Below, one piece after another: positions 5,077 to 34,995 of a stretch of 64,000 nt of DNA (position 1 is the stretch's first letter; each line of letters starts with the position of its first letter). The translations under genes and the position numbers were made by a program. The notes below the pieces were generated by a model. The model made no database searches. It was not told where the DNA came from and saw only the letters and a list, made by a program, of their open reading frames with translations. This stretch comes from Thermodesulfobacteriota bacterium (GTDB lineage Bacteria > Desulfobacterota_D > UBA1144 > Nemesobacterales > UBA2774): assembly GCA_965216785.1 (NCBI GenBank), contig OZ244197.1, positions 25,120 through 89,119 on the forward strand, given 5' to 3'.

Positions 5077-5508
5077 CTAAAAAGGTATGTCGTCGTCGGT
5101 TTTAAAAGAATCATCGTCAATTTCAAAGTCGCCTTCGGAGCTCGAGCTGTCTCTGGACGGCGATTCCGATCTGCTTCCCGCAGAGCTCAGCATCTCCATA
5201 CTTCTTGCAACGACTTCGGTAGTCCATCTGGTATTCCCTTCTTTATCTTCCCAGGATCTGGTCCGGAGCTGACCCTCGATATAGACCATCCGCCCCTTAG
5301 TCAGGTACTCACCGCATATCTCGGCCAGCCTGCCCCATGCGACTATTCTATGCCATTCGGTGTTTTCCTGTTTTTCCCCGTCCTTGTTCGTATAGCTGTC
5401 GGAAGTAGCGATCGTAAAGTTCGCAACCGCCTGCCCCCCGGTTGTATATCTGATCTCCGGATCCTTGCCCAGATTACCTATTAAAATTACTTTGTTTACG
5501 CCTCTCAT
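5077..5508 (-). CDS. ssb: Single-stranded DNA-binding protein
   Basis: OB-fold start [22 protein letters not shown], a Ser/Asp-rich linker and the acidic C-terminal tail DDDIPF characteristic of SSB. Confidence 0.9.
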
Positions 5509-5576
5509 TGATATTCCCCCGGTCTAATTTGGCTACTGCAGAAATTCTATCATCTGAGCACATTAAAATCCAGAAA

Positions 5577-6170
5577 TCAGAAAATATGTCTTGTAAGCGA
5601 AATAAACTGACGTAGGATTCTTCCCGTCATGCCCCAGATAATATATTGTTCATAAACGTATGCATAGTCTTCCCTGGGTATTCCATCCCTTTCTCTTAGC
5701 CTGAGCTTAAAGTTCTTCTCATCCATAAGGTGCGTTACCGGCACCCATAGGACCTGTTCAACCTCTCGCGCGCAGGGAGTGAATGAAACCTCCTCATTAA
5801 GTACGGATAGATAGGGAGTTACAATATAAGTCCTCGCGCGGGGGTTATTGGGATTTACATCATCGAGTTCGCCGAGAACTCGTCCGCTTTGAACAATATC
5901 GACCCCAATCTCCTCACGTGTTTCACGCACAGCGGTCTCGAGCTTGTCCGTATCCTCACCCTTCATCTTGCCGCCCGGAAACGCAACATGTCCCGAGAAC
6001 GGGTCGCTGTCGCTATCGGGTCTCTTTATAAAGAGCATGGAAGTCCCGGCAGGCTCTTCCTGTAATATCATCATCACGGCAGCGTGAACGAAGTCCCCTT
6101 CAATCGTTAGTTTATGGGGATCTCTTGCTGCCAGGAGTTTTTGTAATTTTTCGCTAGTTCCCTGAGACAT
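5577..6170 (-). CDS. NUDIX hydrolase (CoA pyrophosphatase-like)
   Basis: Nudix box GGKMKGEDTDKLETAVRETREEIGV (GX5EX7REUXEEXGU). Size is typical of NudL-type enzymes. Confidence 0.7.
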   Translation of the reverse strand: MSQGTSEKLQKLLAARDPHKLTIEGDFVHAAVMMILQEEPAGTSMLFIKRPDSDSDPFSGHVAFPGGKMKGEDTDKLETAVRETREEIGVDIVQSGRVLGELDDVNPNNPRARTYIVTPYLSVLNEEVSFTPCAREVEQVLWVPVTHLMDEKNFKLRLRERDGIPREDYAYVYEQYIIWGMTGRILRQFISLTRHIF

Positions 6171-6210
6171 TTTATTTCAGCTGCTATAGCTGGTTTTAAG
6201 CAGAGTATTA

Positions 6211-6741
6211 TTATTTGTTTATCAACTTCTTTTCAAAAGCATCTTTGAAAATCCGATAAGCACTGTCGTCAAAAAGTACAAAGTAGATTTTCTCGAGCGA
6301 TACTCCCTCATTATTAATATACCAAGAAGTTATATCTATCATAATCTCCGCACATTGTTCGAGCTGGAATCCCCCGACTCCTGTCCCTATAGCGGGGAAG
6401 GCAATAGTTTTAACATTGTTCTCCAGAGCCCTGAGAAGTGCGTTTCTTGTCGCGCTCTCAAGCGACTCCCTACTGACCAGAGCTCCCGGGTGCATGGCTG
6501 CAGCATGTATAACGTATTTGGCCGCAAGGTTTCCGGCTCCGGTGACAGCCGCCTCTCCGAGCTCAATAGGTCCGATCTCGTCACATTCAGTCTGAATGGA
6601 CGCTCCTCCGTTTTTTCTAATGGCTCCGGCCACGCCGCTTCCTAAGATAAGCTCGGTATTAGCGGCGTTCACTATAGCTTCGGCGGGGCACTTCGTTATG
6701 TCGCCCTTTAAAACTTCGATTTTATCCACTAAACTGATCAT
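6211..6741 (-). CDS. Macro-domain protein (ADP-ribose/O-acetyl-ADP-ribose processing)
   Basis: Macro-domain motifs GDIT...AIVNAAN...GGVAGAI and IAFPAIGTGVGG. The track ORF begins at 6786, but the macro domain starts at MISLVDKIEV (ATG 6741). The start is uncertain. Confidence 0.7.
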   Translation of the reverse strand: MISLVDKIEVLKGDITKCPAEAIVNAANTELILGSGVAGAIRKNGGASIQTECDEIGPIELGEAAVTGAGNLAAKYVIHAAAMHPGALVSRESLESATRNALLRALENNVKTIAFPAIGTGVGGFQLEQCAEIMIDITSWYINNEGVSLEKIYFVLFDDSAYRIFKDAFEKKLINK

Positions 6742-6848
6742 AATTTTACTCACATGATATCGGGCAAAAAGTAGCAAGTTGCGCACTTGACAAACAGCGC
6801 AGTAAAACTACTAATTTAATCTATAACTCCACAATCTACAACGACACT

Positions 6849-7754
6849 ATGGACACTAGATATTACATTTTAGAGGCTCTTTACAAGCTCTTCCCATTTA
6901 AGCTCACAGGCGATGCGGAGCTTGGTCCAGAAGATTGCTCAGTAACAGCTTCGTGCGTAATCAATTTTTACGGCAGGGCCTATTTACTCAGAAATATTCT
7001 TACATGCCTTAGCCAGCAGAGATTTGCAAAAGAGAGCTTCGAGGTGATTTTAGCCGAGGACAGGGGCGGCACAGAAGAAGGGAAACAGATAGTCCGGGAG
7101 TTTGAGAAAGAACTGAATATAAAATACTTTACTCTCAACGAGAATTTCGGCGTAATGGGCTACGCAAGAAACTTTGCCCTTTCAAAAACCACGGGAAATT
7201 ACGTGCTGTTTTTGGACGATGATACCGTGATTTTAGAGCGCGATTTCCTGAAAGTGCTAGTAAGAGAATTTGAGGAAACCGCAGCAGACGCCGTAATGCC
7301 ATACGGCAGCGCGAGCTTTTCAGTAATTAAAGACAAATACGATTACCATGACCCCTACTTTCCGACCAACAGGTGTATGGCATACAGACGTGAAGCGCTC
7401 AAAGAGCTTTCAGGATTCGTATCTGAAATCATTGGTCAGGAAGACGTGGAATTTACCGTTAGACTAATTGCATCTCAGAAAAAGATCTATCGCTCAAATA
7501 TGCTTTCATACATGCACCCGCCTCTTATTTACAAGGATACGAATAAAGCCGCGGCAGTCGGCTACTCGTTTACCAGACTGAGGAGCAGATATCCCCTTAT
7601 TATCTGGCTATTACTTCTGTTAAACGGGCTTAGATACCTTCCGCTTTATCTTCTTCCCTTCAGCACCAAATACAGAATGCAGGCTAAATTCAGCCTCGGC
7701 TTCGCAAAAGGAATCTGGTATTCGATAACAGGCAGAAAAATCGAGTACAGTTAA
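6849..7754 (+). CDS. Glycosyltransferase family 2
   Basis: GT-A fold features: early acidic AED, DDD (LFLDDDTV) and a membrane-associated C-terminus. First gene of the glycan locus. Confidence 0.7.
   Translation: MDTRYYILEALYKLFPFKLTGDAELGPEDCSVTASCVINFYGRAYLLRNILTCLSQQRFAKESFEVILAEDRGGTEEGKQIVREFEKELNIKYFTLNENFGVMGYARNFALSKTTGNYVLFLDDDTVILERDFLKVLVREFEETAADAVMPYGSASFSVIKDKYDYHDPYFPTNRCMAYRREALKELSGFVSEIIGQEDVEFTVRLIASQKKIYRSNMLSYMHPPLIYKDTNKAAAVGYSFTRLRSRYPLIIWLLLLLNGLRYLPLYLLPFSTKYRMQAKFSLGFAKGIWYSITGRKIEYS
7671..7750. repeat. Direct repeat copy 1 (3' end of the GT2 gene), paired with 12986-13065
   Basis: tacagaatgcag..cagcctcgg.....gcagaaaaatc.agta is shared at ~70% identity with 12986-13065. 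There it is a non-coding remnant that translates YRMQFKLSLG...* against the native YRMQAKFSLGFAKG. Confidence 0.6.
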
Positions 7755-7908
7755 GGTTCTAATATATAGCAAGCTCTGTTAATCTATAATTTAATCTATT
7801 ACATGTCTGAACACATACTAGGTGTTAAACTATTTACATTAATTAAATCGAGAACAGCATTGTATCCAAACTTTACATAATTGGCTTAATAGAGTTAGGT
7901 AAGCACAA

Positions 7909-8715
7909 ATGTTTGATTTAGAAAAAGATAGATCACTAAGAGACCTTATCGAAACACAAAACAATAATGTTATAGACAAATGGGAAGGATATTTCAGTGT
8001 TTATGACGATGAAACAGAATACTTAAGAAACAAACCAATAAATCTATTGGAAATTGGTGTTCAAAATGGCGGCTCATTAGAGGTATGGTGTAAATATTTC
8101 AGCAAAGCTAAGAATGTAATTGGAGTTGATATTGATCCCAACTGCAGTGGTATCTCATTTGATGATAAGAGAATAAAGGTAATTATCGGCGACAGCAATT
8201 CCACATCACTAAAAGATGAATTACAAAATGTATGTCCTTATTTCGACGTAATTATAGATGATGGATCTCACAAATCCTACGATATAATTAAGACGTTCAC
8301 AGATCTTATACCGTTATTGAATTCTAATGGGGTATATATAATCGAAGACCTTCATTGTAGTTACTGGCAAAATTTCCAAGGCGGAGTTGAAAGACCGGAC
8401 TCATCATTAAGCTTTTTTAAAAAAATAGTGGACGTAATTAACATTGAACACTGGCGGAATGGAAAAGATCTTAACTGGTTATTTAGAGATGTGGGTCTTG
8501 TAAATATCAACAGTGAATCCATCGAAGCGTTAAGCAGAATAAAAAGCATCTCATTCTATAATTCAATGTGCATTGTTAAAATGTCAGACGGTAAATATCA
8601 AACAATCGGTAAGAGATATGTAAGGGGAAGCGTCGGGACAATAGAAAAGAACGAATCTGATGGCACAGATATATCAGACGTAGATGAGCAGCAAGACTTA
8701 AACCCGTATAGTTAA
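7909..8715 (+). CDS. Class I SAM-dependent methyltransferase (CmcI/TylF-like O-methyltransferase family)
   Basis: LLEIGVQNGGSLEVW motif I, VIGVDID, and IIDDGSH acidic post-II. Typical of sugar O-methyltransferases in glycan loci. Confidence 0.6.
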   Translation: MFDLEKDRSLRDLIETQNNNVIDKWEGYFSVYDDETEYLRNKPINLLEIGVQNGGSLEVWCKYFSKAKNVIGVDIDPNCSGISFDDKRIKVIIGDSNSTSLKDELQNVCPYFDVIIDDGSHKSYDIIKTFTDLIPLLNSNGVYIIEDLHCSYWQNFQGGVERPDSSLSFFKKIVDVINIEHWRNGKDLNWLFRDVGLVNINSESIEALSRIKSISFYNSMCIVKMSDGKYQTIGKRYVRGSVGTIEKNESDGTDISDVDEQQDLNPYS

Positions 8716-8730
8716 TGTAAAAGCATTATA

Positions 8731-11700
8731 TCACTTTCTGTGATTTATTAAATCTGCATACCTGGAATTAAACAGTCTTAATGCTTTTTGATATAACTCA
8801 AAATCTAAAGAATTCAACTCTGTAATCAAATTCATTAAATTAAGATCCAGATTTTGTACTTTCTCTATGTAGTTCTTCCCTACATTCCGGACTAGGTATG
8901 GAATATCGAGCCCGAAATTAGCATTGAGTAAATGTAGCGATTTCTTATACTGCTCTGTTATACCGATAAAACCTATGTCTTCAGGTATAAGACCATTAAT
9001 AAATTCAAACTGTCTATTTTGAAATTTTTCCGTATGCACAAACTCCAACAAAGTCCCCTTATATCCGTGATGATTTACAAAATGATTATAGTCAGACAAT
9101 ACTCGTTGGACAGGCTCTCTGAAAAATACGATACAACGTTCTGGATTAACTATGCCCCGGTACCTTATAATCGGATAATGACCTATTATAAAAATTTTGC
9201 CCTCTGAGACAAGCCTATTCCTCAGAGATTTCAGGTCATTGCTTTCGTACACAAATTGTCTTATGCAGGGCGATGTCAGGGATTCATCTATTCCATAGTC
9301 ATACGCTATATATTCCTCACCATAAGTTTCTTCTATGCCATTCCTTAAGCTTGTACCCGCGGTTTTTGGAATATGTACGAAAAAGATTGGATCTTTAAAG
9401 CTAATATCGAAAGTGTCTTCTCTTCTAGCGCCGGGTTGAAATGTTTTTAAAGTATTAACGGACGTTGCAGAATTGTCATTTATATATTCAGAAACTGCAG
9501 ATTCCAGCCATGGTTTATATACTTTTGTAGATTGCGCAATCTCAAACGATGAAGAATATAGAGAAAGATTGGGATTATAAAATGGATCATTATCCAATGT
9601 ATATCCCCATTTTGTTCTCATATAAGATATTTCTTTCTTAAATCTGTTTAGTTTCTCTGGCTCAGAATCATATCCTCGAGACTTGCTTTCTAAATGGTAA
9701 AGCTCTGCATGAGGTGTCCATATAATCTTGTAACCGGCCTGCCGAATACGGATACAGAAATCCACATCATTAAATGCCACTGCCAGGTCTTTTTCATTTA
9801 GCCCTCCGATTTCATCAAACACTTCTCGTCTTACTGCCATACAGGCAGCAGTTACACAAGACAAACTATGAGTTAACATGAGCCTACAGAAATACCCAGG
9901 AAACTCTCGATCAGCATAGCGGTGTACATGGCTAGCAACACCTTCGATACCCAGAATAACTCCACCATGCTGTAGTGTATTATCGGAATAGTAGAGTTTG
10001 GCACCGACAGCGCCGACCTCGGCCCGAATTACATGGCTTACCATTTCGTCAAGCCAGCCTGGATTTATGATCTTGGTATCATTATTCAACAAAACACATA
10101 CTTCTCCAGACGAACCGGCAATTCCATTGTTGACAAGTCGTGAAAAATTAAATGGACCTGGATCTTTTACTACCCTAACATTATTGTTTGATTGGACATT
10201 CTCAAGAAACTCGAGAGCATCCTGCTCACTACTCCCGTTATCAACAATAATTATTTCAATTGGCTCATAATCAGTGCGGTTAAAAAGCCCGTCAATACAG
10301 GTCATGAGAAGCCCACTCTGATCTTTTGTAGGAATAATTACTGAAACGTGAGGACACTTTAAAGGTAATTCACGTTTTATGGATTGAAAACTTGAGTGGC
10401 CTTCGGAATTGGCTCTAGCACTCTGATTTGTCCGTTCGAAGTGTTCGTTTACTAACCTCTGTGCGGCATCGCGCGCTAGTTCTGATGAGCTGTTTGAAAA
10501 AGACGCATCAATTTCTCTCCAGTGATAAAGAATAAAAGGAATATGATATATCTCTGATTCCCTTATTATTTCCACTACCCTGAGAGCAAAATCCCAGTCC
10601 TGAGACCCCTCGAATCCTTCGCGGAATCCTCTCACTTTTTGGGCTAGGTCAGCTCTGTAAGCACCGAGATGACTGATCAAATTCTGACCCAGGAAAAGAT
10701 CATAGTCCCAGTCGGGTTTAAAATAAGGGGCAGAGCGCCTCCCTTCTGAATCTATCCGGTCTTCATCAGAATAAATTATTGCCGCATTAGGATTTTCATT
10801 TATTACATCTGTGACCAGATATAGTGCGTGCTCGGATAGTAAATCATCATGATCCAGAAGAACAATCCAGTCTCCGCTTGCCATTTCAAGAGCTGTGTTT
10901 GTACAGGCTGAAATGCCCCCGTTTTCCTGACGAAATGAGGGTCTTATTCGGGAGTCTTTCTCCTCATATTCCCTTAGAATATTGTGTACTTCCATCGAGG
11001 TCGAGGAATCATCAACTATGCAAAGCTCCCAGTTTTCATATAGTTGTCCTAAAACAGAATCGATGGCTTGTCTTAGATACTCGCCTTTCGTATTATATAC
11101 AGGCATAAGTACCGAGAACTTTGGATTGCTATCAAAAGACTTGATATGATTCCGTATCAGAGAGCGGTCTTTATCACTTAAGGTGTCATTTCCCTGTATC
11201 CATTTATAGTAATCGATATTATTTGAAGCATTCTTTTTGTTGAAGTATCTGGAGGTTCGTGGAATCTCATGCGGGAGCCGCTTTCCCCTCAGGTACCAGT
11301 ATAACCTACCGGAGAATGTCTCTATTCCTTCATTTTTAAGCAGCTCTATCCCCAGCCCGGCATCTTCATACAAAAACGCTACCTTGTTTTTGAGTAAAAC
11401 GAACAGGTCAGCAATGCCCCTTAAAGGATGTGTAATCCGCCATGACCAAGTTACAAGTATGTTGGCTATTGTTTCCTGCTGTTCTCGAACCTGTTTTGAT
11501 AATTCTAGATTCTTCCTATCTGATTCACTCAGCTTTGACTTTAGGCTATAAATTTTACTCTTATAGATTTCTTTTTCTTGTTGCAATATCTTGAAGCGTT
11601 CATCTGAGGACAAAAGCACCTCTTGCTCACCACTTAGTTCTTCAAGACGCTTTAGCAAGAGGTTTGTCTTTGCGAATGGATTCGATGTCGAAGAAGAACA

Positions 11701-12801
11701 AGATGGGCGATGCTGCCTACAGATATCCGCTATGTAGTCCCAGTGCTTTTCAAGCTTGCCCTGTGCTGCTTTCGTAAATGAACAAATACGAGGTGTTCCT
11801 GATTGTACCGCCCGCGCAAACTTTGCAATCGCACCTGAGTCCTGCGGCGAGGCATAGTAAACATTGTCTGATGCTTGCAACAGTGTGTATTTGCCACCTT
11901 TGGCTTCGGCAGGCCGGAGCACAGGCAAGCCATATGCTAGCGCCGAAATCGAGAGATGCAGGCTCTGGGCAATGACACCGGCGCTATGCGCTACGAGCCC
12001 GGCAATTTCAATGGGTGATGGCCACTCCGGCAGATGCTTCGCCTTTGGGAGGACTTTTAGAAAAGGCGAGACATCGTCACCGAGAGCGGGTCCGATCGGC
12101 AGCACGAGGACATCGAGATCGGAAGGCACATCAGGATGGTAGAGTAGAGCTTCTATAATTGCTACCATTGATGGGTACGCCTGAACAACGATGTATCTAT
12201 CTCTTAATTTAAGACGAGAGAGAAGGTTCTTCACCCGACTGCGTAAATCCTTTCGGGGAAAGTGGCGCGAGATTGCAAAGACGGTATCAGGAACAACACT
12301 GCACGTGCCGTCGAAACCGGCCCTGCGGAGCGCATCGACACTAGAACGATCTCGTAGAGCAACATAGTCGCTATTTTCGAGTACTAAAGGTAGGAGTTTT
12401 TCAGACCATTCTGGAAATGCATCCGACGCACTTGGCGCATTCCAAATTACCGGCAGACCTGAACCAATACCTGCAAGAGCCGGTGCGAGCCAGTATCCTG
12501 TTGGATGAGGAATCTCCGGGATCGGCGGTGCGTAGCCAGGTGCCACAGCTTTATCAAAGCGGATGAGGTGGCCCCCTCCGATCAGGATACAATCAAGCCT
12601 CTGTTGACCAGGCGGCTCCGTGTTCAAACTGGTGAGACTCTTAACGTCATAACACCATGACGGAGACCTCTTTTCATGATATGAATATCGAACAAGTTCA
12701 AAATCTTCGAGCCGTTCATTAAGCTCCCGCTCCGCGATCATTGGAAACAGCAGATCGCCGTAATTCTCGACATCAAAAGTTCCGAAGATACCAATGCGCA
12801 T
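8731..12801 (-). CDS. Four-domain glycan-modification fusion protein: polysaccharide pyruvyl transferase + coiled coil + GT2 + GT2 + sulfotransferase
   Basis: 1356 aa. N-terminus MRIGIFGTFDVENYGDLLFPMI (PS_pyruv_trans/CsaB-WcaK-like). A heptad-rich linker follows at ~aa 380-470. GT2 number 1 has FSVLMPVYN...CIVDDSS...LLDHDD. GT2 number 2 has VSVIIPTKD...IIVDNGS...LLNNDT. The C-terminus carries FFVHIPKTAGTSL (PAPS 5'-phosphosulfate-binding loop) and FFREPVQRVLSDYNH (3'-phosphate-binding motif) of a sulfotransferase. Confidence 0.75.
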   Translation of the reverse strand: MRIGIFGTFDVENYGDLLFPMIAERELNERLEDFELVRYSYHEKRSPSWCYDVKSLTSLNTEPPGQQRLDCILIGGGHLIRFDKAVAPGYAPPIPEIPHPTGYWLAPALAGIGSGLPVIWNAPSASDAFPEWSEKLLPLVLENSDYVALRDRSSVDALRRAGFDGTCSVVPDTVFAISRHFPRKDLRSRVKNLLSRLKLRDRYIVVQAYPSMVAIIEALLYHPDVPSDLDVLVLPIGPALGDDVSPFLKVLPKAKHLPEWPSPIEIAGLVAHSAGVIAQSLHLSISALAYGLPVLRPAEAKGGKYTLLQASDNVYYASPQDSGAIAKFARAVQSGTPRICSFTKAAQGKLEKHWDYIADICRQHRPSCSSSTSNPFAKTNLLLKRLEELSGEQEVLLSSDERFKILQQEKEIYKSKIYSLKSKLSESDRKNLELSKQVREQQETIANILVTWSWRITHPLRGIADLFVLLKNKVAFLYEDAGLGIELLKNEGIETFSGRLYWYLRGKRLPHEIPRTSRYFNKKNASNNIDYYKWIQGNDTLSDKDRSLIRNHIKSFDSNPKFSVLMPVYNTKGEYLRQAIDSVLGQLYENWELCIVDDSSTSMEVHNILREYEEKDSRIRPSFRQENGGISACTNTALEMASGDWIVLLDHDDLLSEHALYLVTDVINENPNAAIIYSDEDRIDSEGRRSAPYFKPDWDYDLFLGQNLISHLGAYRADLAQKVRGFREGFEGSQDWDFALRVVEIIRESEIYHIPFILYHWREIDASFSNSSSELARDAAQRLVNEHFERTNQSARANSEGHSSFQSIKRELPLKCPHVSVIIPTKDQSGLLMTCIDGLFNRTDYEPIEIIIVDNGSSEQDALEFLENVQSNNNVRVVKDPGPFNFSRLVNNGIAGSSGEVCVLLNNDTKIINPGWLDEMVSHVIRAEVGAVGAKLYYSDNTLQHGGVILGIEGVASHVHRYADREFPGYFCRLMLTHSLSCVTAACMAVRREVFDEIGGLNEKDLAVAFNDVDFCIRIRQAGYKIIWTPHAELYHLESKSRGYDSEPEKLNRFKKEISYMRTKWGYTLDNDPFYNPNLSLYSSSFEIAQSTKVYKPWLESAVSEYINDNSATSVNTLKTFQPGARREDTFDISFKDPIFFVHIPKTAGTSLRNGIEETYGEEYIAYDYGIDESLTSPCIRQFVYESNDLKSLRNRLVSEGKIFIIGHYPIIRYRGIVNPERCIVFFREPVQRVLSDYNHFVNHHGYKGTLLEFVHTEKFQNRQFEFINGLIPEDIGFIGITEQYKKSLHLLNANFGLDIPYLVRNVGKNYIEKVQNLDLNLMNLITELNSLDFELYQKALRLFNSRYADLINHRK

Positions 12802-12985
12802 ATGTGTCTCACAAAGTTACTTCAGAGGAATTTGTAAAAATTTGAGTTTTAAATTCATGCTTCTCTTATTTTTATCCTTTTGCACTAAATTAGTCTGTCT
12901 GTTTTAAAAAAGAAATACAATACTCATTATTTCCTGAACATTACGAACAAAACGGTTCGGAAACTATTTCCCCCTCATAATGAGT

Positions 12986-13065
12986 ACAGAATGCAGTTTA
13001 AACTCAGCCTCGGTGTTGTACCCATAATCTGTTATTAGTGACCTGCAGAAAAATCAAGTATAATG
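12986..13065. repeat. Direct repeat copy 2 (non-coding remnant of the GT2 3' end)
   Basis: See 7671-7750. Together the two copies bracket the ~5.2 kb segment carrying the methyltransferase and the 1356-aa fusion gene. Confidence 0.6.
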
Positions 13066-13102
13066 AATTCGCATTCTCACCCCTAACAGGCACATATTAT
13101 CA

Positions 13103-13876
13103 ATGATTAAAAGAGTAATACCCTATAAAGACCTCTTCATAGTCTACGTATGGAGAGAATATAATATAAGATACCGCCATTCCATCATGGGATTCCTGTG
13201 GGCTATTATTCAGCCCTTGAGCATGATGCTTCTCTTTACATTCGTTTTCACATACATATTGAAGATACAGACATCGGACTACCCGATAGCAATATTCTTT
13301 TACGCGGGACTCTTGCCTTGGACCTTTTTTTCTTCTTCAGTGAATTATTCTGTTTCAAGCCTTTCTGACAACTTTGATATAATTACAAAGATTTATTTCC
13401 CCAGGGAAATACTTCCACTCTCTGGAATATCCGTGGCTTTTGTCGATTACCTCATAGCCTCGCTCATATTTATACCTATGCTTGTAATATATAAAATCCA
13501 AATCACATTAAATGTGCTCTGGATCATCCCTCTTTTCATTCTCCTATTTATATTTACAATATCGATGTCTCTTTTGCTATCGAGCTTAAATGTGTATTAC
13601 AGAGACGTAAAACTTGCAATTGGGTTTTTGATACAACTTTTATTCTTTGCTTCTCCGATTCTTTATTCAATTGATGACCTGAGCATCAAGCTTAAATTGA
13701 TACTATTGCTCAACCCTCTTACATTTATTATTGAAAATATGAGAAGATGCTTGATTGAGGGGCGAGGAGTGGTGTTGTGGCAGTTTTTAATAGCTGCATT
13801 ATTGGTATTAGCATTCTTTTATCTAGCACATAAATTTTTCATAAAAACAGAAAGGGATTTTGCAGATGTCATCTAA
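13103..13876 (+). CDS. wzm: ABC-2 type polysaccharide/O-antigen exporter permease
   Basis: 257 aa with six predicted TM segments and the ABC-2 signature region. Its end overlaps the following ATPase gene by 17 nt. Confidence 0.8.
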   Translation: MIKRVIPYKDLFIVYVWREYNIRYRHSIMGFLWAIIQPLSMMLLFTFVFTYILKIQTSDYPIAIFFYAGLLPWTFFSSSVNYSVSSLSDNFDIITKIYFPREILPLSGISVAFVDYLIASLIFIPMLVIYKIQITLNVLWIIPLFILLFIFTISMSLLLSSLNVYYRDVKLAIGFLIQLLFFASPILYSIDDLSIKLKLILLLNPLTFIIENMRRCLIEGRGVVLWQFLIAALLVLAFFYLAHKFFIKTERDFADVI

Positions 13877-14597
13877 CACAGTCATAGAGTTTCAAGACGT
13901 GTGGAAGAAATACTCCACACAGGACATTTTCCATAAATCCATAAGGGATGAGATCGCCAATATATTTTCCAAGACCGACAGAGAAAACCTCGGGCACGGA
14001 GAGTTTTGGGCTTTAAAGGGGATTAGTATGTCGATAAAAAGGGGTGAGTGCATAGGATTATACGGACCCAATGGTTCTGGAAAATCTACGATTTTAAAAC
14101 TGATAGCATCAGTCACTTTTCCAAACAGAGGAGAGGTTAAAGTGGGAGGCAGAATAGCCCCGTTAATATCTGTAGGTGCTGGCTTTCATCCTGATCTTAC
14201 AGGAAGAGAGAATATTTACACCAATGGAACTATAATTGGAATGACTATCAAAGAAGTAAGAGATAAAATAGAGGATATCGTTCAATTCTCGGATATCGAT
14301 GAGAAGTTTATTGATATGCCAGTTAAGAAATATTCAACCGGTATGAATGCGCGGCTTGGCTTTTCTATTGCAATTCACAGTAGTGCGGAGATAATATTAA
14401 TCGACGAAATACTCGCTGTTGGAGATGAAGCTTTTCAGAAAAAATGTCTAACTAAGATCGAAGAGCTAATTGAGAAAAAAAGAACCATAATTATCGTGTC
14501 TCATAATAAAGACAGGCTCCGAGAATTGACTCACAGAATATTATTTATTCAAACAGGTGAAATAATTGATTCAGAATACCAAGAAAAGGTACTATAA
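13860..14597 (+). CDS. wzt: ABC exporter ATP-binding protein (short Wzt lacking the C-terminal glycan-binding domain)
   Basis: Walker A GPNGSGKST, signature YSTGMNARLGF, Walker B IILIDEILAVGD. At 245 aa it has no carbohydrate-binding extension. Confidence 0.85.
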   Translation: MQMSSNTVIEFQDVWKKYSTQDIFHKSIRDEIANIFSKTDRENLGHGEFWALKGISMSIKRGECIGLYGPNGSGKSTILKLIASVTFPNRGEVKVGGRIAPLISVGAGFHPDLTGRENIYTNGTIIGMTIKEVRDKIEDIVQFSDIDEKFIDMPVKKYSTGMNARLGFSIAIHSSAEIILIDEILAVGDEAFQKKCLTKIEELIEKKRTIIIVSHNKDRLRELTHRILFIQTGEIIDSEYQEKVL

Positions 14598-14626
14598 TTT
14601 ATGTCATCACATTATTCAAAGAGGAT

Positions 14627-16054
14627 ATGATGGGATATAACCCAAAAGTAGCAATCGTAATAGTTACATGGAACAAAAAGAAGTATGTAGTAGATCTACT
14701 GAACTCACTAAAAGACATTAACTATAAAAACTATGAAATATTTGTAGTAGATAATGCGTCTACAGACGATACTTGCAAAGTAATAAAAGAAAAGTATCCA
14801 TATGTGGATTTAATAGAGAATGAGGAAAATCTTGGGGGAACCGGCGGATTTAACACTGGGATGAAGTACGTTCTTGAGAAGGGCGGCTATAAGTATATAT
14901 GGCTCTTGGATAACGATGCAGTGGTAGAGAAAGATACACTAATCGAGCTTGTTAAAGTTATGGAAAACGACAACGGCGTAGGTATTACAGGTTCTATAAT
15001 AATGGAACCTGACAAGGAAATGATAGTTGAGCTCGGAGCATATGTATCATGGTCTATTGGAACATGGAAGCCAAATATGCGGAATAACAGAATAAGCAAA
15101 ATGGAGCATCTCGAGAATGCAGAGGTCGATTATGTAGCTGCGTGCTCGTCTCTAGTACGTACTGAAGTTCTTGAAGAAATCGGAGTAATGGATGAAAGAT
15201 ATTTTATACATTGGGATGATATTGACCTCTCTCTGAGAGCCAAGGCTGCCGGTTATAAGGTAATGGCATCACCAAAGTCTAAAGCTTATCACGGGATCGA
15301 GGACAAACCCATTAACCCTCTAATGTCATATTATGACATTAGAAACGGGCTACTTACAATCACAAAACATCAAGACGGTTTAAGCAGGTTTATATATATA
15401 ATGAACATGCTGAGGGGAACGAGTAAGGGTATCGTATACTCTATGTTAAGCGGACTTCACAATACTTCTAAGCTCCTGATTCGTGGGCCTATAGATTTCA
15501 TAAGGGGCAAATTTTATAAAACTAATATTCAGGTGATCAAAAGTGAATATGATGACCCGAAAGTTAGAAAATATAAAATAGAAGATTTACCGCTCAATAA
15601 TAATTCTAAAGTGATAATTCAACCTAATGCAAGCTACGCAGTCATTAAAAATATGGTACAAGAACTAAGAGAACTATATCCCGACTGCCATATTAGCTTA
15701 CTGATACAGCAAGACAGACAAGAGCTTTTTAAAGGCCTTAAGATTGACCGTTTTATTACTTTTGAAGGATACAGACAATCAACTATACAAACTATTTCGG
15801 TACTCAACAAGATACTACAATCGAATTATGATATTTGCATCAGCCCAAGCCGTTCACTTCTTCCGTTCTCACATGCTGTAAAAAAATACTTCTTGTATGA
15901 TCATCAAAATGACTATTTTGTAAAGAGTAATGAAAATTTATTTGCATCCTGGAAGCTCTTCGTATCATTCTTTGCGGGGGAGTTACTAGCATTTATTCTT
16001 TTACCCTTCGTATATCTTAAGAGCTTTCAATATGAGACAGTAAAGAGCTCTTAA
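14627..16054 (+). CDS. Glycosyltransferase family 2 (rhamnosyltransferase-like) with ~230-aa C-terminal domain of unknown function
   Basis: N-terminal GT-A motifs: VIVTWNKK, FVVDNASTDDT, LLDNDAVV. The C-terminal half has no recognisable motif. Confidence 0.7.
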   Translation: MMGYNPKVAIVIVTWNKKKYVVDLLNSLKDINYKNYEIFVVDNASTDDTCKVIKEKYPYVDLIENEENLGGTGGFNTGMKYVLEKGGYKYIWLLDNDAVVEKDTLIELVKVMENDNGVGITGSIIMEPDKEMIVELGAYVSWSIGTWKPNMRNNRISKMEHLENAEVDYVAACSSLVRTEVLEEIGVMDERYFIHWDDIDLSLRAKAAGYKVMASPKSKAYHGIEDKPINPLMSYYDIRNGLLTITKHQDGLSRFIYIMNMLRGTSKGIVYSMLSGLHNTSKLLIRGPIDFIRGKFYKTNIQVIKSEYDDPKVRKYKIEDLPLNNNSKVIIQPNASYAVIKNMVQELRELYPDCHISLLIQQDRQELFKGLKIDRFITFEGYRQSTIQTISVLNKILQSNYDICISPSRSLLPFSHAVKKYFLYDHQNDYFVKSNENLFASWKLFVSFFAGELLAFILLPFVYLKSFQYETVKSS

Positions 16055-16108
16055 CTTACATCCACAAAATTATTTGAGAGAAACAAATTGATTTAGAGAT
16101 AACAGGCT

Positions 16109-17020
16109 ATGTACTCTAAATTACCAAACTTTTTCATAGTAGGTGCTGCAAAATCAGGCACAACATCAATTTTTGCATATCTGTCTCAACACCCAGAAAT
16201 TTTTTTTAGCCCTCTTAAAGAGCCTAAGTTCTTTTCTGTCTCAGCAAACACATTTCCTCATAAAGGACCTGGTGATAGTGAAGTTGACAATACTATAATT
16301 AAAGATAAGCACGATTACCTTAATCTGTTTAAAGGTGCTAAAGATGAAAAAGTCATTGGGGAAGCTTCAGCTGATTATTTATATTTCTATAAGATTGCAG
16401 CACCTTTGATATACGAATGCAACCCTAATGCAAAGATACTTATAATTCTGAGAAACCCGGCTGAAAGAGCCTTTTCCGCTTATCGACACATGCTGAAAGA
16501 CAAAAGAGAAAGCCTCTCATTTGAAAACGCCATTGAAGCTGAAGAAAGTAGGATGGACAATAATTATGAGTTCATATGGTTTTACAAAGACGTTGGTCAT
16601 TACTATCACCAAGTCCTGGAATATTTAAAGACTTTCAATAAAGGTTCAGTAAAAATTTGCCTTTTCGAGGATTTAACAAAGAATTCAAGCGAAGTTACAA
16701 GGGAAATTTTAAAGTTCCTTGAAGTTGATGAGTGCTTCTCACCGGATATAAGCGAAAAACATAATGTATCGGAGATAAAACTTAACGAGTCGTTAGACCA
16801 ATTCCTAAGCAGGTATAATCATCCTGTTAAAAATTTGCTTCGCCCCTTATTCCTCAACACTTTAGGTAAAGATAATACAGAAAGATTAGTGAATTATTTC
16901 AAAGGTAAGAATGTTCTTAGAATGAGATCAAAAACGAGGAAATCCCTGATTAATTTATACAGGGATGATATTATAAAACTCCAAGATTTAATAAAGCGTG
17001 ATCTATCGTCTTGGCTTTAA
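16109..17020 (+). CDS. Sulfotransferase (PAPS-dependent, carbohydrate sulfotransferase-like)
   Basis: 5'-PSB loop FIVGAAKSGTTS and 3'-PB motif ILRNPAERAFSAY. 303 aa. Confidence 0.8.
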   Translation: MYSKLPNFFIVGAAKSGTTSIFAYLSQHPEIFFSPLKEPKFFSVSANTFPHKGPGDSEVDNTIIKDKHDYLNLFKGAKDEKVIGEASADYLYFYKIAAPLIYECNPNAKILIILRNPAERAFSAYRHMLKDKRESLSFENAIEAEESRMDNNYEFIWFYKDVGHYYHQVLEYLKTFNKGSVKICLFEDLTKNSSEVTREILKFLEVDECFSPDISEKHNVSEIKLNESLDQFLSRYNHPVKNLLRPLFLNTLGKDNTERLVNYFKGKNVLRMRSKTRKSLINLYRDDIIKLQDLIKRDLSSWL

Positions 17021-17090: not shown

Positions 17091-18401
17091 CTATCTCCCA
17101 AACGCCCCACCTATGAAAAACCCGTCCTTTATGGACTCGGCAATGCCTTGGAACACCCACCTGCCATAGCGGCCTATCTGATAGACTCCTTTTTTCTCAA
17201 GCTCTTTTATGGCATCTTCGCGCCAGCTGGAACCCGGCATAGACCAAGTGTAAGCAACGTCTATCCACGTAGGGTCTACAGTCTCGGCTTTGGTAATAAA
17301 TCCCCAGGATTTAAGCTCTTTTACTACGGAGTCTGAGTATTTTTTGATCTCTTTTGCGCTTGGCTTTTTACCGTTTTGGTAGGCTTTTTCAACATATATG
17401 CTCACTCGGTTATTGGCTTTCCTTGAACTTTTGGGCATAAAAGAAACATCTACATTTGTATAGAACCCAACCCTGTGAAACTTGGAATCGCTATCTGGGA
17501 TGTAGAGCCAGTGATCCTCGGGACATTTTCTGCCTTTAGTAGCGCCGATATTGAGTACCAGAACCGAAGTGTAATTGGATGGCTCCTGATCGATTTTTAC
17601 TCCCGCCATCTCCATAGCTTTATTTAGCGGCAGGGTAGATATAAGGCTTTTATAATGCGATCCCGAGCCGTCTGAAAAAATTACTTCCTTCTTCTTTGTA
17701 TTTATTTCAGCTACTTGTTTGTCATAGTTTACTTTGCAGTCTGCAGCCATTTTCTGGGCCATGGTGTTAAGACCTTGCTTTGGATATAGATACGTAACGT
17801 TGTATCCGACAGCGGGTGGAGCTTTGTCCATTGCCCCCTGCACTGCCACTTTAAGATCCACAGGGGATTTATAGGCGTCCTGAGGGGCAATATCAGTCCA
17901 TAGTCCTGCCGTATAGAGTTCGTGAAACGGGGCGAAGAAAAGCTCCATTAGCGTTTTTCCAAAACTCTTCTCGAGCCAGTCCCCCATTGTCCGGGGGGTA
18001 CCTTCCGGAGCGTTTATAATCTCGCTGATAGCTAGTGACGCTGTCTTTTTCCCTAGGTAGCTCAAATGGTTTTGTATTGGATATGGAACATAAAGGTCTT
18101 GTTTACTAAAATAGACTGCCGATTTTCTCTTGTACGATTTAACCGGAGTAAGTGATTTAATATAACGCAGTATCGCGGGGTCGCCGCCGAAAATCCAGTG
18201 TCCCCCGCCTATCTCGAACCTGTAGGCTTCCTCATCTTCAGGCGCTTTAAAGAGCTTCTTATTGCTCCCTGGTTTTAAATAATACGAAGAGCAGATTCCA
18301 CCCGGCACGTCCTGTGCTTCAAATACCGGCAGACCGGAAACAAGTCCCGCGGCAAGACCCGTAATCCCGCCGCCTAAAATTAGATTGTTAGAGTTTTTCA
18401 C
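17091..18401 (-). CDS. FAD/NAD(P)-binding oxidoreductase (amine-oxidase / UDP-galactopyranose-mutase superfamily)
   Basis: N-terminal dinucleotide-binding motif ILGGGITGLAAG...FEAQDVPGG. 436 aa. Confidence 0.6.
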   Translation of the reverse strand: MKNSNNLILGGGITGLAAGLVSGLPVFEAQDVPGGICSSYYLKPGSNKKLFKAPEDEEAYRFEIGGGHWIFGGDPAILRYIKSLTPVKSYKRKSAVYFSKQDLYVPYPIQNHLSYLGKKTASLAISEIINAPEGTPRTMGDWLEKSFGKTLMELFFAPFHELYTAGLWTDIAPQDAYKSPVDLKVAVQGAMDKAPPAVGYNVTYLYPKQGLNTMAQKMAADCKVNYDKQVAEINTKKKEVIFSDGSGSHYKSLISTLPLNKAMEMAGVKIDQEPSNYTSVLVLNIGATKGRKCPEDHWLYIPDSDSKFHRVGFYTNVDVSFMPKSSRKANNRVSIYVEKAYQNGKKPSAKEIKKYSDSVVKELKSWGFITKAETVDPTWIDVAYTWSMPGSSWREDAIKELEKKGVYQIGRYGRWVFQGIAESIKDGFFIGGAFGR

Positions 18402-21659: not shown

Positions 21660-23429
21660 CTACTGCTCAGGATATAGACTAGGCAGCCTTTCCGATCTAT
21701 AAACTGTCCATCCGTTCATATTCTCGGGATTATCATCCTCTATAGATAGGTCAAAAACCTTCTCAGCCGGTGTTGTATGAGTTACTTCGATTATGCGTGG
21801 TGTGGTTATTGCTGTTGCAATATTATCTGTAGGAACACCTTCAGCATCCTTAGCAACACCTCCGTGAGTGATCAGCACATTACCAGTTACAGGCATATAG
21901 TCCGCATCGCCAATGAAAGGAGCGTAAAGTATTTCATCCGCAAATTCCCCGAATTCCCAAACCTGCTCTATCTCCATGTTGTCCAGATCAAGTGAGTATT
22001 CCACAGCTCTACTGAAGTTTTCTGACGCGGGGACAGTCTCATCAAAAGGACTTGCTTTCAAATTACCGTTATCGTATATCAATATATTTCCGTTAGGCAA
22101 TACCATAGGTGCATGCTGGTGAAATTGCCAAAGGAAATTCAGTCCGATAGGGTCAAAAAGTAAGTCACCAAAAATATCTGTATCCCAGTTAGCATGGGTA
22201 CCTATTATCCAAGACAGGTCTCCAGTTGCTCTGTCGAATTTGATTACAGCGTCTTGGTGTCTCAAGGAGACAATAATAGAATCATCGGATGGATCATATA
22301 TAACGGCATTTCCATGGCTCCAATCCTTGGTTCCTTGCTCGAATTCAGGAAAGGTCGCATTCCAAAAACCTAAAAGGGAATTATATCCTATTCTGAAAGG
22401 GTCCAGCATTTCCAGAATAGACCATTCATTTACAATAGTCCCATCTGTTGAGAGCTCTAAAACAGTATCCCCCGCAACAAAAGCACTCTCAGTCGGGGCT
22501 AACGGATCGGTATCACTAGCAGGAAAATTGTCTATTAAAATTACTTCAACGCCTAGTGTAAGTAAATTGCCATTTGGCATCTCGAACACTTCATGGTGAA
22601 ACACATCAGTATTTACGACAATACTGTCAGGACCTGCCGTACTACTTAACAGTGTATGCCATTGTCTTACAATATCTCCCAACATATTAATTTCAGTAAT
22701 AGTACTATTACTTTCAATAAATAGAATGTTTCCATTTGATATTCGGGTAACATCACCGTAAGCAACATCATCAAACCTTTTGTACCAAACGACATCACCT
22801 TGTGCATTTACAGCTACTAAAAAAGAGCCTAATTCCGTGTTAGCCACACGTGGTCTCAGAGGAAATATCGTAACACCAGGCTCCATCATCTCAGGATTAC
22901 TTGTTACCTCGATCGGGGGGAAACCCTCCGGCAATGGATCGGTGTCTACTAAGATTGGCTGATCAAACTGAGTTTGGTTTCCGAATGCGTCGCTTACAGT
23001 GATCTGAAGCATAAAACTGCCGTCCGGAGTAAAACCTAAAATCGGAAGTGAGTGCTCAATAGCCCGATCATCAAACTCAATTGTCAATGACTCGAATGCG
23101 CCTCTATTTAGAGTTGTAGTAGTTGTTGTAGCTTCGGTGATTGTAACGCTCACAGATGTAGGCTCATCTGTTCCAAGCTCGAGCAGTCCCGCAAGCGGGG
23201 TGTCCGGGTTGGGCGCCAAAGTGAATATAGGCTGGGACGTGAAAACAGGAGCGGTGTTATCATTTTCTATATTAGAAGAGTCACCGGATGCGGCATCTCC
23301 TTCAAACCCATTGAAATTATCGTCACAGCCTGCAGCCAACAGGATTAATGCAAGAACTGGCACTAATACAATGTAACGATTAGATAACCTCAGAATATTA
23401 AAAAAGTGTAATACTCCGTATTGACCCAT
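21660..23429 (-). CDS. Secreted lipoprotein, arylsulfotransferase (ASST)-like beta-propeller
   Basis: Signal peptide plus lipobox LLAAGC. Motifs FHHEVFEMPNGN and DWSHGNAVIYDPSDDSIIVSLRHQDAVIKFD resemble PAPS-independent aryl-sulfate sulfotransferase propellers. Assignment is from remembered motifs only. Confidence 0.45.
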   Translation of the reverse strand: MGQYGVLHFFNILRLSNRYIVLVPVLALILLAAGCDDNFNGFEGDAASGDSSNIENDNTAPVFTSQPIFTLAPNPDTPLAGLLELGTDEPTSVSVTITEATTTTTTLNRGAFESLTIEFDDRAIEHSLPILGFTPDGSFMLQITVSDAFGNQTQFDQPILVDTDPLPEGFPPIEVTSNPEMMEPGVTIFPLRPRVANTELGSFLVAVNAQGDVVWYKRFDDVAYGDVTRISNGNILFIESNSTITEINMLGDIVRQWHTLLSSTAGPDSIVVNTDVFHHEVFEMPNGNLLTLGVEVILIDNFPASDTDPLAPTESAFVAGDTVLELSTDGTIVNEWSILEMLDPFRIGYNSLLGFWNATFPEFEQGTKDWSHGNAVIYDPSDDSIIVSLRHQDAVIKFDRATGDLSWIIGTHANWDTDIFGDLLFDPIGLNFLWQFHQHAPMVLPNGNILIYDNGNLKASPFDETVPASENFSRAVEYSLDLDNMEIEQVWEFGEFADEILYAPFIGDADYMPVTGNVLITHGGVAKDAEGVPTDNIATAITTPRIIEVTHTTPAEKVFDLSIEDDNPENMNGWTVYRSERLPSLYPEQ

Positions 23430-23496: not shown

Positions 23497-23982
23497 TTAT
23501 CTATTTTTCTTAGGCCTGTCCTTCTCTTCTATATACTCACCTATCTTAGTATTTCTTCTGACCGAGGGGGGAAGGTTGGAAAGGTCCGGTTTTGGCATAT
23601 TAGTTGAAAGATCGCTCGTAAAAGCAAAACTAGAGACGACCTTCTCAACTTTCTTAGTGTCGCAAAACGGGCACCTGACTTTATTCTCGTCCTTATCTTC
23701 ATAGATAAGCTCGGAAAAACGATAGTTCTTCCCTAGATTGAAAAACACCAGAGTCGTTCCTTCATTAAGATAAAAATCCAAATCGACAGCGTCTTTATCA
23801 CGCTTACCGTGTTCACCCAAGATTGTTTCTTTCTCCGTATCATAAACTACTACATGATTTATATTGTCATACTTCTTAACCAGCTCGGATACGGTTTTTT
23901 TATTCGCTTTATTAGCAATTGACTTCAAAGAATCATCTACGTTTTTCCTGCATACCGTGCATTCATATTCAAATAGCGGCAT
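23497..23982 (-). CDS. FmdB-like zinc-ribbon protein with ~90-aa insertion (paralog A)
   Basis: MPLFEYECTVC (FmdB-type N-terminal CxxC). The second CPFC pair is ~95 aa later. Lys-rich. Confidence 0.55.
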   Translation of the reverse strand: MPLFEYECTVCRKNVDDSLKSIANKANKKTVSELVKKYDNINHVVVYDTEKETILGEHGKRDKDAVDLDFYLNEGTTLVFFNLGKNYRFSELIYEDKDENKVRCPFCDTKKVEKVVSSFAFTSDLSTNMPKPDLSNLPPSVRRNTKIGEYIEEKDRPKKNR

Positions 23983-24000
23983 CTCACTCCTCCGGATCTA

Positions 24001-24504
24001 TTATCTATTGAAATATTGATTCAGATGGTCCTGACCTACCCAATCGTTTCGCTGCTCTTCATCTTTTTGCTGCTTATACTCTAAATGCCATTGGAGCTCG
24101 TCCCCTGGACCGGGCGCCCTTTTACTTTTATCCTCGAATATGGCTTTAAACGTCGAGAACACTCTCTGAAGACCCTTGCCGTCACATATCGGGCACCTGA
24201 GCTTTTTTTCATCCTTCTTGTCGTAAATTAGCTCGCTGAATCTAAAATTCTTGAGCTCAAGATAAAGGACCTTTTTGTTTTCAAGAGTATATTTAAATCT
24301 TCTTAGCGTCCTGCTATCACTTTTTTCGCCCAAGGCGAAAAGGGGCTTTTTCTTCTTCCCTTCTGTTACTTCTATATAAGTGAACCCATCGTTACTTTTC
24401 TTAATCCTGGACGCATTGGTCTTGTTGAGTTTCTCTACAAGGGTGTCAATGTCTCTGTTATACCTCTCTATGCACTCTTCGCATTCATATTCAAATAGCG
24501 GCAT
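24001..24504 (-). CDS. FmdB-like zinc-ribbon protein with insertion (paralog B)
   Basis: MPLFEYECEEC...RFSELIYDKKDEKKLRCPICD. It shares the block RFSELIY[ED]K.DE.K.RCP.CD with paralog A. The two are tandem, 18 nt apart. Confidence 0.55.
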   Translation of the reverse strand: MPLFEYECEECIERYNRDIDTLVEKLNKTNASRIKKSNDGFTYIEVTEGKKKKPLFALGEKSDSRTLRRFKYTLENKKVLYLELKNFRFSELIYDKKDEKKLRCPICDGKGLQRVFSTFKAIFEDKSKRAPGPGDELQWHLEYKQQKDEEQRNDWVGQDHLNQYFNR

Positions 24505-27918: not shown

Positions 27919-27926
27919 TCTTTACC

Positions 27927-27975
27927 ACTAGTATTTATTTATTTGGGTGAGAGGTCAATTTCAGGATTAAATCAG
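27927..27975. repeat. Duplicated 5'-region segment (copy 1), paired with 29501-29548
   Basis: actagtatttatttatttgGgtgagaggtcaatt is near-identical to the segment upstream of paralog 2. The reverse complement contains TTGACC, a -35-like hexamer. Confidence 0.6.
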
Positions 27976-27996
27976 AAACTAAGATATTCTTAAAAC

Positions 27997-32812: not shown

Positions 32813-32881
32813 CTATTAAGAGTATTAGTTCAGAGTTTTATAATTACAATTTTATATGTGTCTGTATTGTCTCTTAGAATA

Positions 32882-34992: not shown

Positions 34993-34995
34993 TTC

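Follow-up and report, generated by a model that had tools for sequence, protein, structure and literature searches.

A single polypeptide that may build, sulfate, measure and cap a surface glycan is encoded in the 64-kb window analysed here (the whole stretch of 64,000 nucleotides taken from contig OZ244197.1 of a Thermodesulfobacteriota bacterium). The protein, a fusion of 1356 amino acids (aa), joins a predicted pyruvyltransferase head, a long helix, two family 2 glycosyltransferase (GT2) modules and a carbohydrate sulfotransferase domain, and its gene lies beside the genes of a Wzm/Wzt ABC transporter whose Wzt has no C-terminal carbohydrate-binding module (CBM). Our preferred reading, to which we give slightly better than even credence, is a ruler and terminator model in which the fusion would polymerise, sulfate, measure and pyruvate-cap a glycan that the CBM-less exporter then carries out of the cytoplasm. 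What is new here, as far as the sequence comparisons go, is the polymerase-fused sulfotransferase, the exchange of head, tail and exporter arm as cassettes, and the pairing with a Wzt that lacks the CBM.

In this model the glycan would be assembled in the cytoplasm on a lipid carrier and then exported by the Wzm/Wzt transporter. The two GT2 modules of the fusion would polymerise the repeat unit and the Sulfotransfer_2 tail, lying beside them, would sulfate the growing chain; the pyruvyltransferase head, held about 11 nm away on the long helix, would cap the non-reducing end with a pyruvate ketal once the chain reaches it, and this cap would halt elongation. Four further proteins, namely a 301-aa GT2, a MycE-like methyltransferase, a membrane-anchored GlfT2-like GT2 fed by an enzyme resembling UDP-galactopyranose mutase (UGM), and a second sulfotransferase, would act as accessory enzymes that provide primer, side-chain and decoration chemistry in the form of galactofuranose, O-methyl groups and more sulfate. 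Because Wzt lacks a CBM, export would not proofread the cap, and chain length would come from the ruler and the terminator alone. The analysis itself establishes the reading frames, domain identities, motifs, predicted folds, long helix and module exchange among relatives; from these we infer the activities, the part of pyruvate as cap, sulfation in step with polymerisation and the O-antigen-like nature of the polymer. The fusion gene and its parts are as follows.

8731..12801, minus strand: 1356-aa fusion, candidate terminator, ruler, polymerase and sulfotransferase in one protein (Pfam, AlphaFold model, alignments)
11713..12801, minus strand: predicted pyruvyltransferase head, residues 1-363, candidate chain terminator (PF04230, E 2e-28)
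11446..11679, minus strand: single continuous 78-residue helix, residues 375-452, candidate coiled-coil ruler (DSSP assignment on the AlphaFold model)
11419..11445, minus strand: post-helix motif SWRITHPLR, residues 453-461, conserved across head-bearing homologues
10645..11115, minus strand: first GT2 module, residues 563-719 (PF00535; best PDB match chondroitin synthase K4CP, 2z87, 5e-24)
9679..10353, minus strand: second GT2 module, residues 817-1041 (PF13641 and PF00535)
8734..9414, minus strand: predicted Sulfotransfer_2-type (PF03567) carbohydrate sulfotransferase domain, residues ~1130-1356 (motifs, homologues, fold)

Domains of the fusion protein

Pfam divides the protein into PS_pyruv_trans (residues 13-295, E 2e-28), two GT2 domains (563-719 and 817-1041, E 1e-47) and Sulfotransfer_2 (1130-1245). 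The head scores 100.6 bits against PF04230, for which the cut-off is 25.3, and across 62 sequences its motifs N13xG15D16, R150xxxS154 and H282 vary little or not at all; NxGD, RxxxS/T and H are the conserved motifs of glycan pyruvyltransferases (Kelly et al., PMC10629545). When the head was searched against the PDB with phmmer, no solved pyruvyltransferase came back as a significant match. For residues 1-560, the AlphaFold model reaches a mean predicted local distance difference test (pLDDT) score of 82.7, with the head mostly above 90 and the linker behind the helix at low confidence. The fold of the head is GT-B-like, and the Foldseek matches are generic GT-B enzymes and epimerases, so that the fold adds no specificity; the same kind of generic match has been reported for the terminal pyruvyltransferase WbbZ itself (PMC10629545). 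Taken together, the head appears to be a pyruvyltransferase, predicted to carry out phosphoenolpyruvate (PEP)-dependent transfer of ketal-linked pyruvate to a sugar.

The helix that follows the head is rich in E, K, Q and L, gives weak phmmer matches to the coiled coils of ROCK1 and SynGAP, and would, as an extended coiled coil, span about 11.5 nm. Both polymerase modules sit downstream of it on the same polypeptide. The motif at its end, generalised as S[WF][RK]xTxP[LI]R, is present behind a long helix in 48 head-bearing homologues (within the protein set P0001-P0108), where it stands at discrete distances from the head: the spacers fall into classes of ~75-89 (mode exactly 89), 140-148, 158-175, 191-196 and 215-314 residues. 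A family of rulers differing in length would be expected to look like this. At the foot of such a ruler, the SWRxTxPLR motif may serve for docking or membrane association; the linker around and beyond it (residues 453-560) matches no Pfam family at E <= 1.

The C-terminal domain scores 20.0 bits against Pfam Sulfotransfer_2, under the cut-off of 22. It matches heparan sulfate (HS) 6-O-sulfotransferase (6-OST; PDB 5t03), with the segments HIPKTAGTS and FFREPVQRVLS aligned on the loops that bind 3'-phosphoadenosine-5'-phosphosulfate (PAPS). Among its 81 database homologues, which come from Marinobacterium, Halomonas, Vibrio and others, most are free-standing and 310-340 aa long, and many carry PF03567 and the name 'sulfotransferase family 2'. 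Aligning 45 sequences shows H-x-P-K-T-A-G-x-S, G-H and R-x-P...S to be invariant; these columns correspond to H1143, K1146, H1208, R1228 and S1236. The AlphaFold model of the domain (pLDDT 87.4) has HS 6-OST, the bacterial structure 3rnl and HS 2-OST as its top fold matches in the PDB. The second, stand-alone sulfotransferase of the locus aligns end to end with 3rnl (1.2e-68), also matches HS 3-OST and NDST, scores 61.3 bits against PF13469 and 57 bits against PF00685, and has the PAPS motifs GAAKSGTTS and LRNPAERAFS.

The first-pass annotation, made from the letters of the DNA alone, had already named two sulfotransferase domains; both came through the profile searches, whose failure it had named as a refutation, with homologues and fold in agreement. 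Profile, motif, homologue and fold evidence thus confirms the two as predicted PAPS-dependent sulfotransferases. They share PAPS-binding motifs and fold with HS 6-OST, HS 2-OST and 3rnl and differ from them in that one copy is fused to a glycan polymerase, an arrangement for which the searches for fusion homologues returned no case outside this clade apart from a single protein, P0008. Our literature searches for a sulfotransferase together with Wzt, or with Dadabacteria, found nothing useful.

Module exchange among relatives and the wider head family

A database search with the fusion returned close full-length relatives from metagenome assemblies only. One of their loci, L001, belongs to almost the same strain: the DNA on both sides is 97-98% identical, and Wzm, Wzt and the 475-aa GlfT2-like GT2 are 99.6-100% identical. 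The fusion protein of L001 (P0001) is 100% identical to ours over residues 1 to ~900 and 70-92% identical over residues 900-1050, and then continues into a different Sulfotransfer_2-like domain. From about residue 1100 this alternative tail is only 16-34% identical to that of the window, and it keeps FVHIPKTAGT and VRHPLNQVMS. The recombinant 3' end of the gene runs from 8724 to ~10010 in the window and from 6450 to ~7700 in L001; by these alignments, the difference is a strain-level swap of a sulfotransferase cassette.

At the other end of the protein, P0005 of locus L002 is 78% identical to the fusion from residue 394, in the middle of the helix, to the C-terminus; the pyruvyltransferase is absent there, replaced by a Methyltransf_24 head (E 8.8e-25) with a longer helical region. 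The Wzt of L002 is also short (248 aa). In this comparison the head behaves as an exchangeable module, putatively the terminator. The annotation had left the cap open among O-methyl, sulfate and pyruvate; because the head is mounted on the helix upstream of the GT2 modules and is swapped for a methyltransferase in P0005, we regard pyruvate as the likely cap, and sulfate or the product of the stand-alone methyltransferase as disfavoured.

A third locus, L005, occupies the same chromosomal site, with flanking Macro, NUDIX, SSB, GlmU and GlmS proteins 80-97% identical and a cupin gene adjacent to it. Its left arm resembles that of the window, at 87% identity for the 301-aa GT2, 81% for the methyltransferase and 78% for the fusion, except that the sulfotransferase has its own, overlapping open reading frame (ORF); the 301-aa GT2 is kept beside the methyltransferase and fusion genes in L001 too, at 97% identity. 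The wzm and wzt genes of L005 are unrelated to those of the window (34% and 39%), and its Wzt has a Wzt_C domain (E 4.5e-25).

Between wzm and the fusion gene of L005, at 9655-9863, lies a piece of the 301-aa GT2's C-terminal end (combined E 4e-11), of which the equivalent part of the window (12964-13035) holds a very weak echo (E 0.13); the fragment may be a recombination scar. L005 also encodes, at 5152-7353 on the minus strand, a family 4 glycosyltransferase (GT4) with a C-terminal coiled coil of its own (residues ~345-480), and a Methyltransf_23 enzyme adjoins wzt. Perhaps, then, the CBM of L005 reads a methyl cap and not pyruvate.

Base composition is patchy across the locus, in line with an exchange of modules. 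Within the fusion gene the G+C content (GC) is 0.515 in the head, 0.378 in the helix, 0.413 in the GT2 modules and 0.352 in the sulfotransferase tail; the methyltransferase gene and the arm from wzm through wzt and the GT2 to the stand-alone sulfotransferase lie at 0.34-0.375, and the flanking genes at 0.46-0.50.

Beyond these relatives, the first 360-460 residues of the fusion recur as the N-terminus of many proteins with several glycosyltransferase domains (GT2, GT4, RgpF) and on 2-oxoglutarate-oxygenase fusions. A scan of GTDB species representatives gave 260 relatives of the head, the best of them from a Chloroflexota metagenome-assembled genome (MAG; 57%). In Pseudomonas the head and helix form the C-terminus of proteins with Wzt and Wzt_C domains of ~870-931 aa (P0051-P0069; loci L021, L027, L028, L035, L038, L043 and L048), which end about 20 residues past the SWRxTxPLR motif. 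In these Wzt-CBM-pyruvyltransferase fusions a candidate terminator is, from the domain order, physically joined to the exporter. The homologue searches also returned stand-alone head-plus-helix proteins of 440-470 aa encoded beside a long Wzt.

An ORF and phmmer survey of 85 loci counted seven with a short Wzt and about 32 with a long or fused one. In Pseudomonas and other Proteobacteria the Wzt is mostly long (419-445 aa) and adjoins the head or is fused to it. Head ORFs have a short Wzt (239-260 aa) as neighbour in L006 (Chloroflexota), in L010 and in the Acidobacteriota loci L034, L075 and L079, and L002 was also counted among the loci that combine a short Wzt with a pyruvyltransferase head. 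L010 comes from a cultured isolate, Achromobacter arsenitoxydans SY8, in which positions 6517-14515 hold wzm, a short wzt (250 aa) and head ORFs of 532 and 1512 aa.

The exporter and the rest of the locus

The remaining features of the locus are listed below.

6849..7754, plus strand: GT2 glycosyltransferase, 301 aa, possibly an adaptor or side-chain transferase (PF00535, E 8.5e-20; Pfam)
7909..8715, plus strand: predicted class I sugar O-methyltransferase, 268 aa, MycE/TylE/CmcI-like (Methyltransf_24, E 5.9e-7)
12802..13102, no strand: intergenic region between the divergent fusion gene and wzm (GC 0.33)
13103..13876, plus strand: Wzm, ABC-2 permease, 257 aa (PF01061 ABC2_membrane, E 1.4e-15)
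13860..14597, plus strand: Wzt, nucleotide-binding subunit, 245 aa, or 243 from ATG (PF00005 ABC_tran only, E 6.3e-19; no CBM)
14627..16054, plus strand: GT2, 475 aa, with a GlfT2-like catalytic domain, a C-domain and a hydrophobic C-terminal segment (PF00535, residues ~6-250)
16109..17020, plus strand: stand-alone PAPS-type sulfotransferase, 303 aa (PF13469 Sulfotransfer_3, E 2e-16; PF00685 Sulfotransfer_1, E 2.5e-15)
17091..18401, minus strand, convergent with the sulfotransferase gene: UGM-like flavoenzyme, 436 aa (PDB UGM matches, GxGxxG motif)

ORF calling and Pfam recovered the seven ORFs of the first-pass annotation at exactly its coordinates and with its domains, so that its gene content stands. 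The wzm and wzt genes overlap, and the next gene starts 30 nt after wzt. The best NCBIfam matches are galactan Wzm/RfbD for Wzm (2.5e-16) and TagH and galactan Wzt/RfbE for Wzt. The absence of a carbohydrate-binding domain from the 245-aa Wzt, also noted at first reading, holds in Pfam, where ABC_tran is the only domain, and in tblastn, where a relative's CBM used as query found no Wzt_C remnant in the window (best E 0.56). The ORFs of at least 110 aa in the window included none of a Wzx- or Wzy-type family. At the level of domains, then, the locus is an ABC-transporter-dependent surface glycan cluster predicted to encode pyruvyl-, sulfo- and methyl-transfer enzymes, as the annotation had proposed. 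A scan for promoters and terminators gave counts equal to those of shuffled controls and thus no evidence on operon structure; searches of the window for tRNA genes and Rfam families gave no matches.

The accessory genes suggest galactofuranose and O-methyl chemistry. The protein at 17091-18401 matches the eukaryote-type UGMs 3ukk and 3ute in the PDB at 6e-15 (Pfam gives Amino_oxidase only), has GxGxxG at its N-terminus, and probably supplies the galactofuranose donor; we infer its membership in the locus from adjacency, and its gene has a genome-like GC of 0.459, unlike the low-GC island. The catalytic domain of the 475-aa GT2 matches the galactofuranosyltransferases 9dtp (5.6e-12) and 4fix (3.3e-11), and the protein matches NCBIfam GlfT1 at 2.3e-17, far under the equivalog cut-offs; the final 225 residues have no Pfam match even at E <= 1. 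These similarities, moderate as they are, suggest galactofuranose in the product; the first-pass annotation had recorded neither the UGM-like gene nor the GlfT2-like character of this GT2. The 268-aa methyltransferase was fairly labelled CmcI-like, and its best PDB relatives are MycE (3ssm, 6e-19) and TylE (8ia9, 1.6e-15), followed by CmcI (2br3, 3.8e-6).

Several neighbouring genes were also noted. An ASST-family arylsulfotransferase (21660-23429, minus strand; PF05935, 7e-70) has the lipobox LLAAGC, and a hydantoinase gene and hisIE stand between it and the glycan locus. At 26440-29472 on the minus strand, between era and aspS, two paralogous membrane glycosyltransferases of the PMT_2 (GT-C) type are encoded in tandem, with no polyprenyl-phosphate GT2 or small flippase seen adjacent to them. 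The suggestion that the ASST lipoprotein and the GT-C enzymes further modify the glycan found no link beyond proximity, and we have left both out of the system, the one lying behind hydantoinase and hisIE and the other beyond era. The window further contains two tandem zinc-ribbon proteins of 161 and 167 aa (23497-24504, minus strand), a 264-aa collagen-triple-helix-repeat protein (53782-54576, plus strand) and, at 31859-35919 on the minus strand, a GldA/F/G-like ABC system made up of an ATPase, an ABC-2 permease and ABC_transp_aux, together with a DUF4340 protein, which is a second ABC-2 exporter unrelated to Wzm/Wzt.

Chain-length control and its alternatives

The closest characterised designs are those of WbbB and ORF6, in both of which the coiled coil is a molecular ruler (PMC11231755). 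WbbB (Klebsiella pneumoniae O12 and Raoultella terrigena) has an N-terminal terminator, a helical spacer and two C-terminal glycosyltransferase modules in one protein of a Wzm/Wzt locus (PMC11231755), an order that the present fusion follows with its candidate terminator and candidate ruler. [quoted passage not shown] ORF6 of K. pneumoniae O7, with its methyltransferase-kinase head, has the same order of parts, two C-terminal GT2 modules and extra stand-alone glycosyltransferases in the locus; P0005 of L002, with its methyltransferase head, comes closer still to this design. Our fusion shows no kinase or internal CBM and has a predicted pyruvate cap, the extra sulfotransferase and a CBM-less Wzt. 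In characterised systems the terminator always sits at the coiled coil's distal end, a position that is taken to mark this strategy (PMC11231755).

Termination by pyruvate itself has antecedents of two kinds. It has been proposed from bioinformatics, and not validated, for candidates in Burkholderia and Pseudomonas (PMC10629545), and we found no later validation of pyruvate-terminating coiled-coil systems in the literature searched. The Pseudomonas systems share the head family with our locus, and differ in having a Wzt with a CBM and no sulfotransferases; they have not been validated biochemically. WbbZ of K. pneumoniae O1, in turn, shares with the head its enzyme family, the NxGD, RxxxS and H motifs, and an ABC-transporter pathway with a CBM-less Wzt, and the terminal pyruvate that it adds is able to stop polymerisation in vitro.

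The characterised CBM-less systems, those of Klebsiella O2a and O1, nevertheless set chain length by coupling polymerisation to export (PMC10629545, PMC11231755). For this reason the step taken in the first-pass annotation, from a short Wzt to length control by terminal modification, does not follow; the argument for control by a cap comes from the head, placed on a 78-residue helix and exchangeable, an anatomy that the annotation had not recorded, and not from the short Wzt. The same logic could apply here, with length set by coupling, pyruvate decorating some ends or internal residues, and the helix acting in oligomerisation or as a scaffold. The lack of a CBM in Wzt and the precedent of WbbZ, whose terminal pyruvate is dispensable, chains being exported with and without it (PMC10629545, PMC11231755), speak for such an arrangement, which we nevertheless consider unlikely. 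WbbZ is free-standing and has no coiled coil, whereas the present head is attached covalently at the far end of a helix; the head is swapped whole for a methyltransferase, its family has discrete spacer-length classes, and in Pseudomonas it is fused to a CBM-bearing Wzt, and features of this kind are typical of terminators.

It could also be that the locus is a mosaic of two arms, with GT2, methyltransferase and fusion on the left and wzm, wzt, the GlfT2-like GT2, the sulfotransferase and UGM on the right, which serve different glycans or were joined recently by recombination. The original partner of the fusion would then have been a CBM-bearing Wzt, as in L005, and in this genome fusion and exporter would not match, or the exporter would handle a galactofuranose-containing polymer of its own. 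The same left arm at the same site in L005 with an unrelated wzm/wzt pair, the patchy GC, the GT2 gene fragment between wzm and the fusion gene of L005, and best NCBIfam matches of Wzm, Wzt and GT2 to a mycobacterial galactan exporter and GlfT1 all lean this way. We judge it quite improbable, given that the fusion ORF is intact across 4 kb, that the 64 kb hold a single Wzm/Wzt exporter, that the fusion gene and wzm diverge around one 300-nt region here as in L001 and L005, and that a short Wzt beside head-bearing proteins recurs in unrelated phyla; the CBM of L005, moreover, may read a methyl cap made by that locus's own extra methyltransferase and coiled-coil GT4.

A different question is what the finished glycan is attached to. 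The aspartyl-tRNA synthetase (AspRS) of the window is 80% identical to proteins of Ca. Dadabacteria and Thermodesulfobacteriota MAGs (the NCBI taxonomy treats Dadabacteria as a class within Thermodesulfobacteriota), and the host is probably a diderm, which makes an O-antigen-like fate plausible. A Chloroflexota host, to which the best head match among GTDB representatives had pointed, was rejected on the strength of this AspRS result. Yet the window has no waaL, lipopolysaccharide (LPS) core or lipid A genes, and the uncultured lineage of the host is placed by AspRS similarity alone, so that the same Wzm/Wzt chemistry might instead yield a capsule-like or secreted exopolysaccharide or a glycan linked to protein or cell wall. 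We hold this to be a minority possibility of some weight: the window equally lacks KpsC/S/E/D, OPX/PCP and LCP genes, and it is for O-antigens that this architecture has been described (PMC11231755). It concerns the final acceptor only and is compatible with assembly by ruler and terminator.

Several observations count against the ruler and terminator model as a whole. All characterised ruler-terminator systems have a Wzt with a CBM (PMC11231755), and this Wzt has none; WbbZ, the sole characterised terminal pyruvyltransferase to work alongside a CBM-less Wzt, has no control over chain length. The coiled-coil assignment comes from a helix in a monomer AlphaFold model and a marginal single-register heptad test (p ~0.045). 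Because the right arm (wzm, wzt, GT2, sulfotransferase) is a low-GC block and differs from that of L005, the pairing of exporter and polymerase could be recent, and the only genome with the identical pairing, that of L001, is ~98% identical in DNA and so is not independent. Finally, neither PAPS synthesis genes (ATP sulfurylase and APS kinase), nor an initiating transferase, nor a final acceptor ligase was seen in the window.

If the model is true, ruler-based termination would work without the export checkpoint that is present in every characterised case, and a ruler system without a CBM, together with a sister locus that has one, would offer a direct test of whether the checkpoint is necessary. 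Pyruvate as a length-setting cap has been proposed and never validated, and the cultured Achromobacter isolate could be a tractable model of a pyruvyltransferase head paired with a CBM-less Wzt. The parts may also be of use for engineering sulfated glycans, as Escherichia coli makes PAPS.

The genetics of sulfated surface polysaccharides in bacteria is poorly known, and it is here that the exchange of modules may matter most. A polymerase-fused sulfotransferase that is replaced in a near-identical strain suggests that the sulfation pattern is a strain-variable antigen. Tentatively, since we regard the full proposal as possible and short of an even chance, one could imagine a polypeptide that polymerises, sulfates, measures and pyruvate-caps its glycan for CBM-less export, and whose head, tail and exporter arm are swapped between strains as cassettes, thereby varying the antigen that these bacteria would present.

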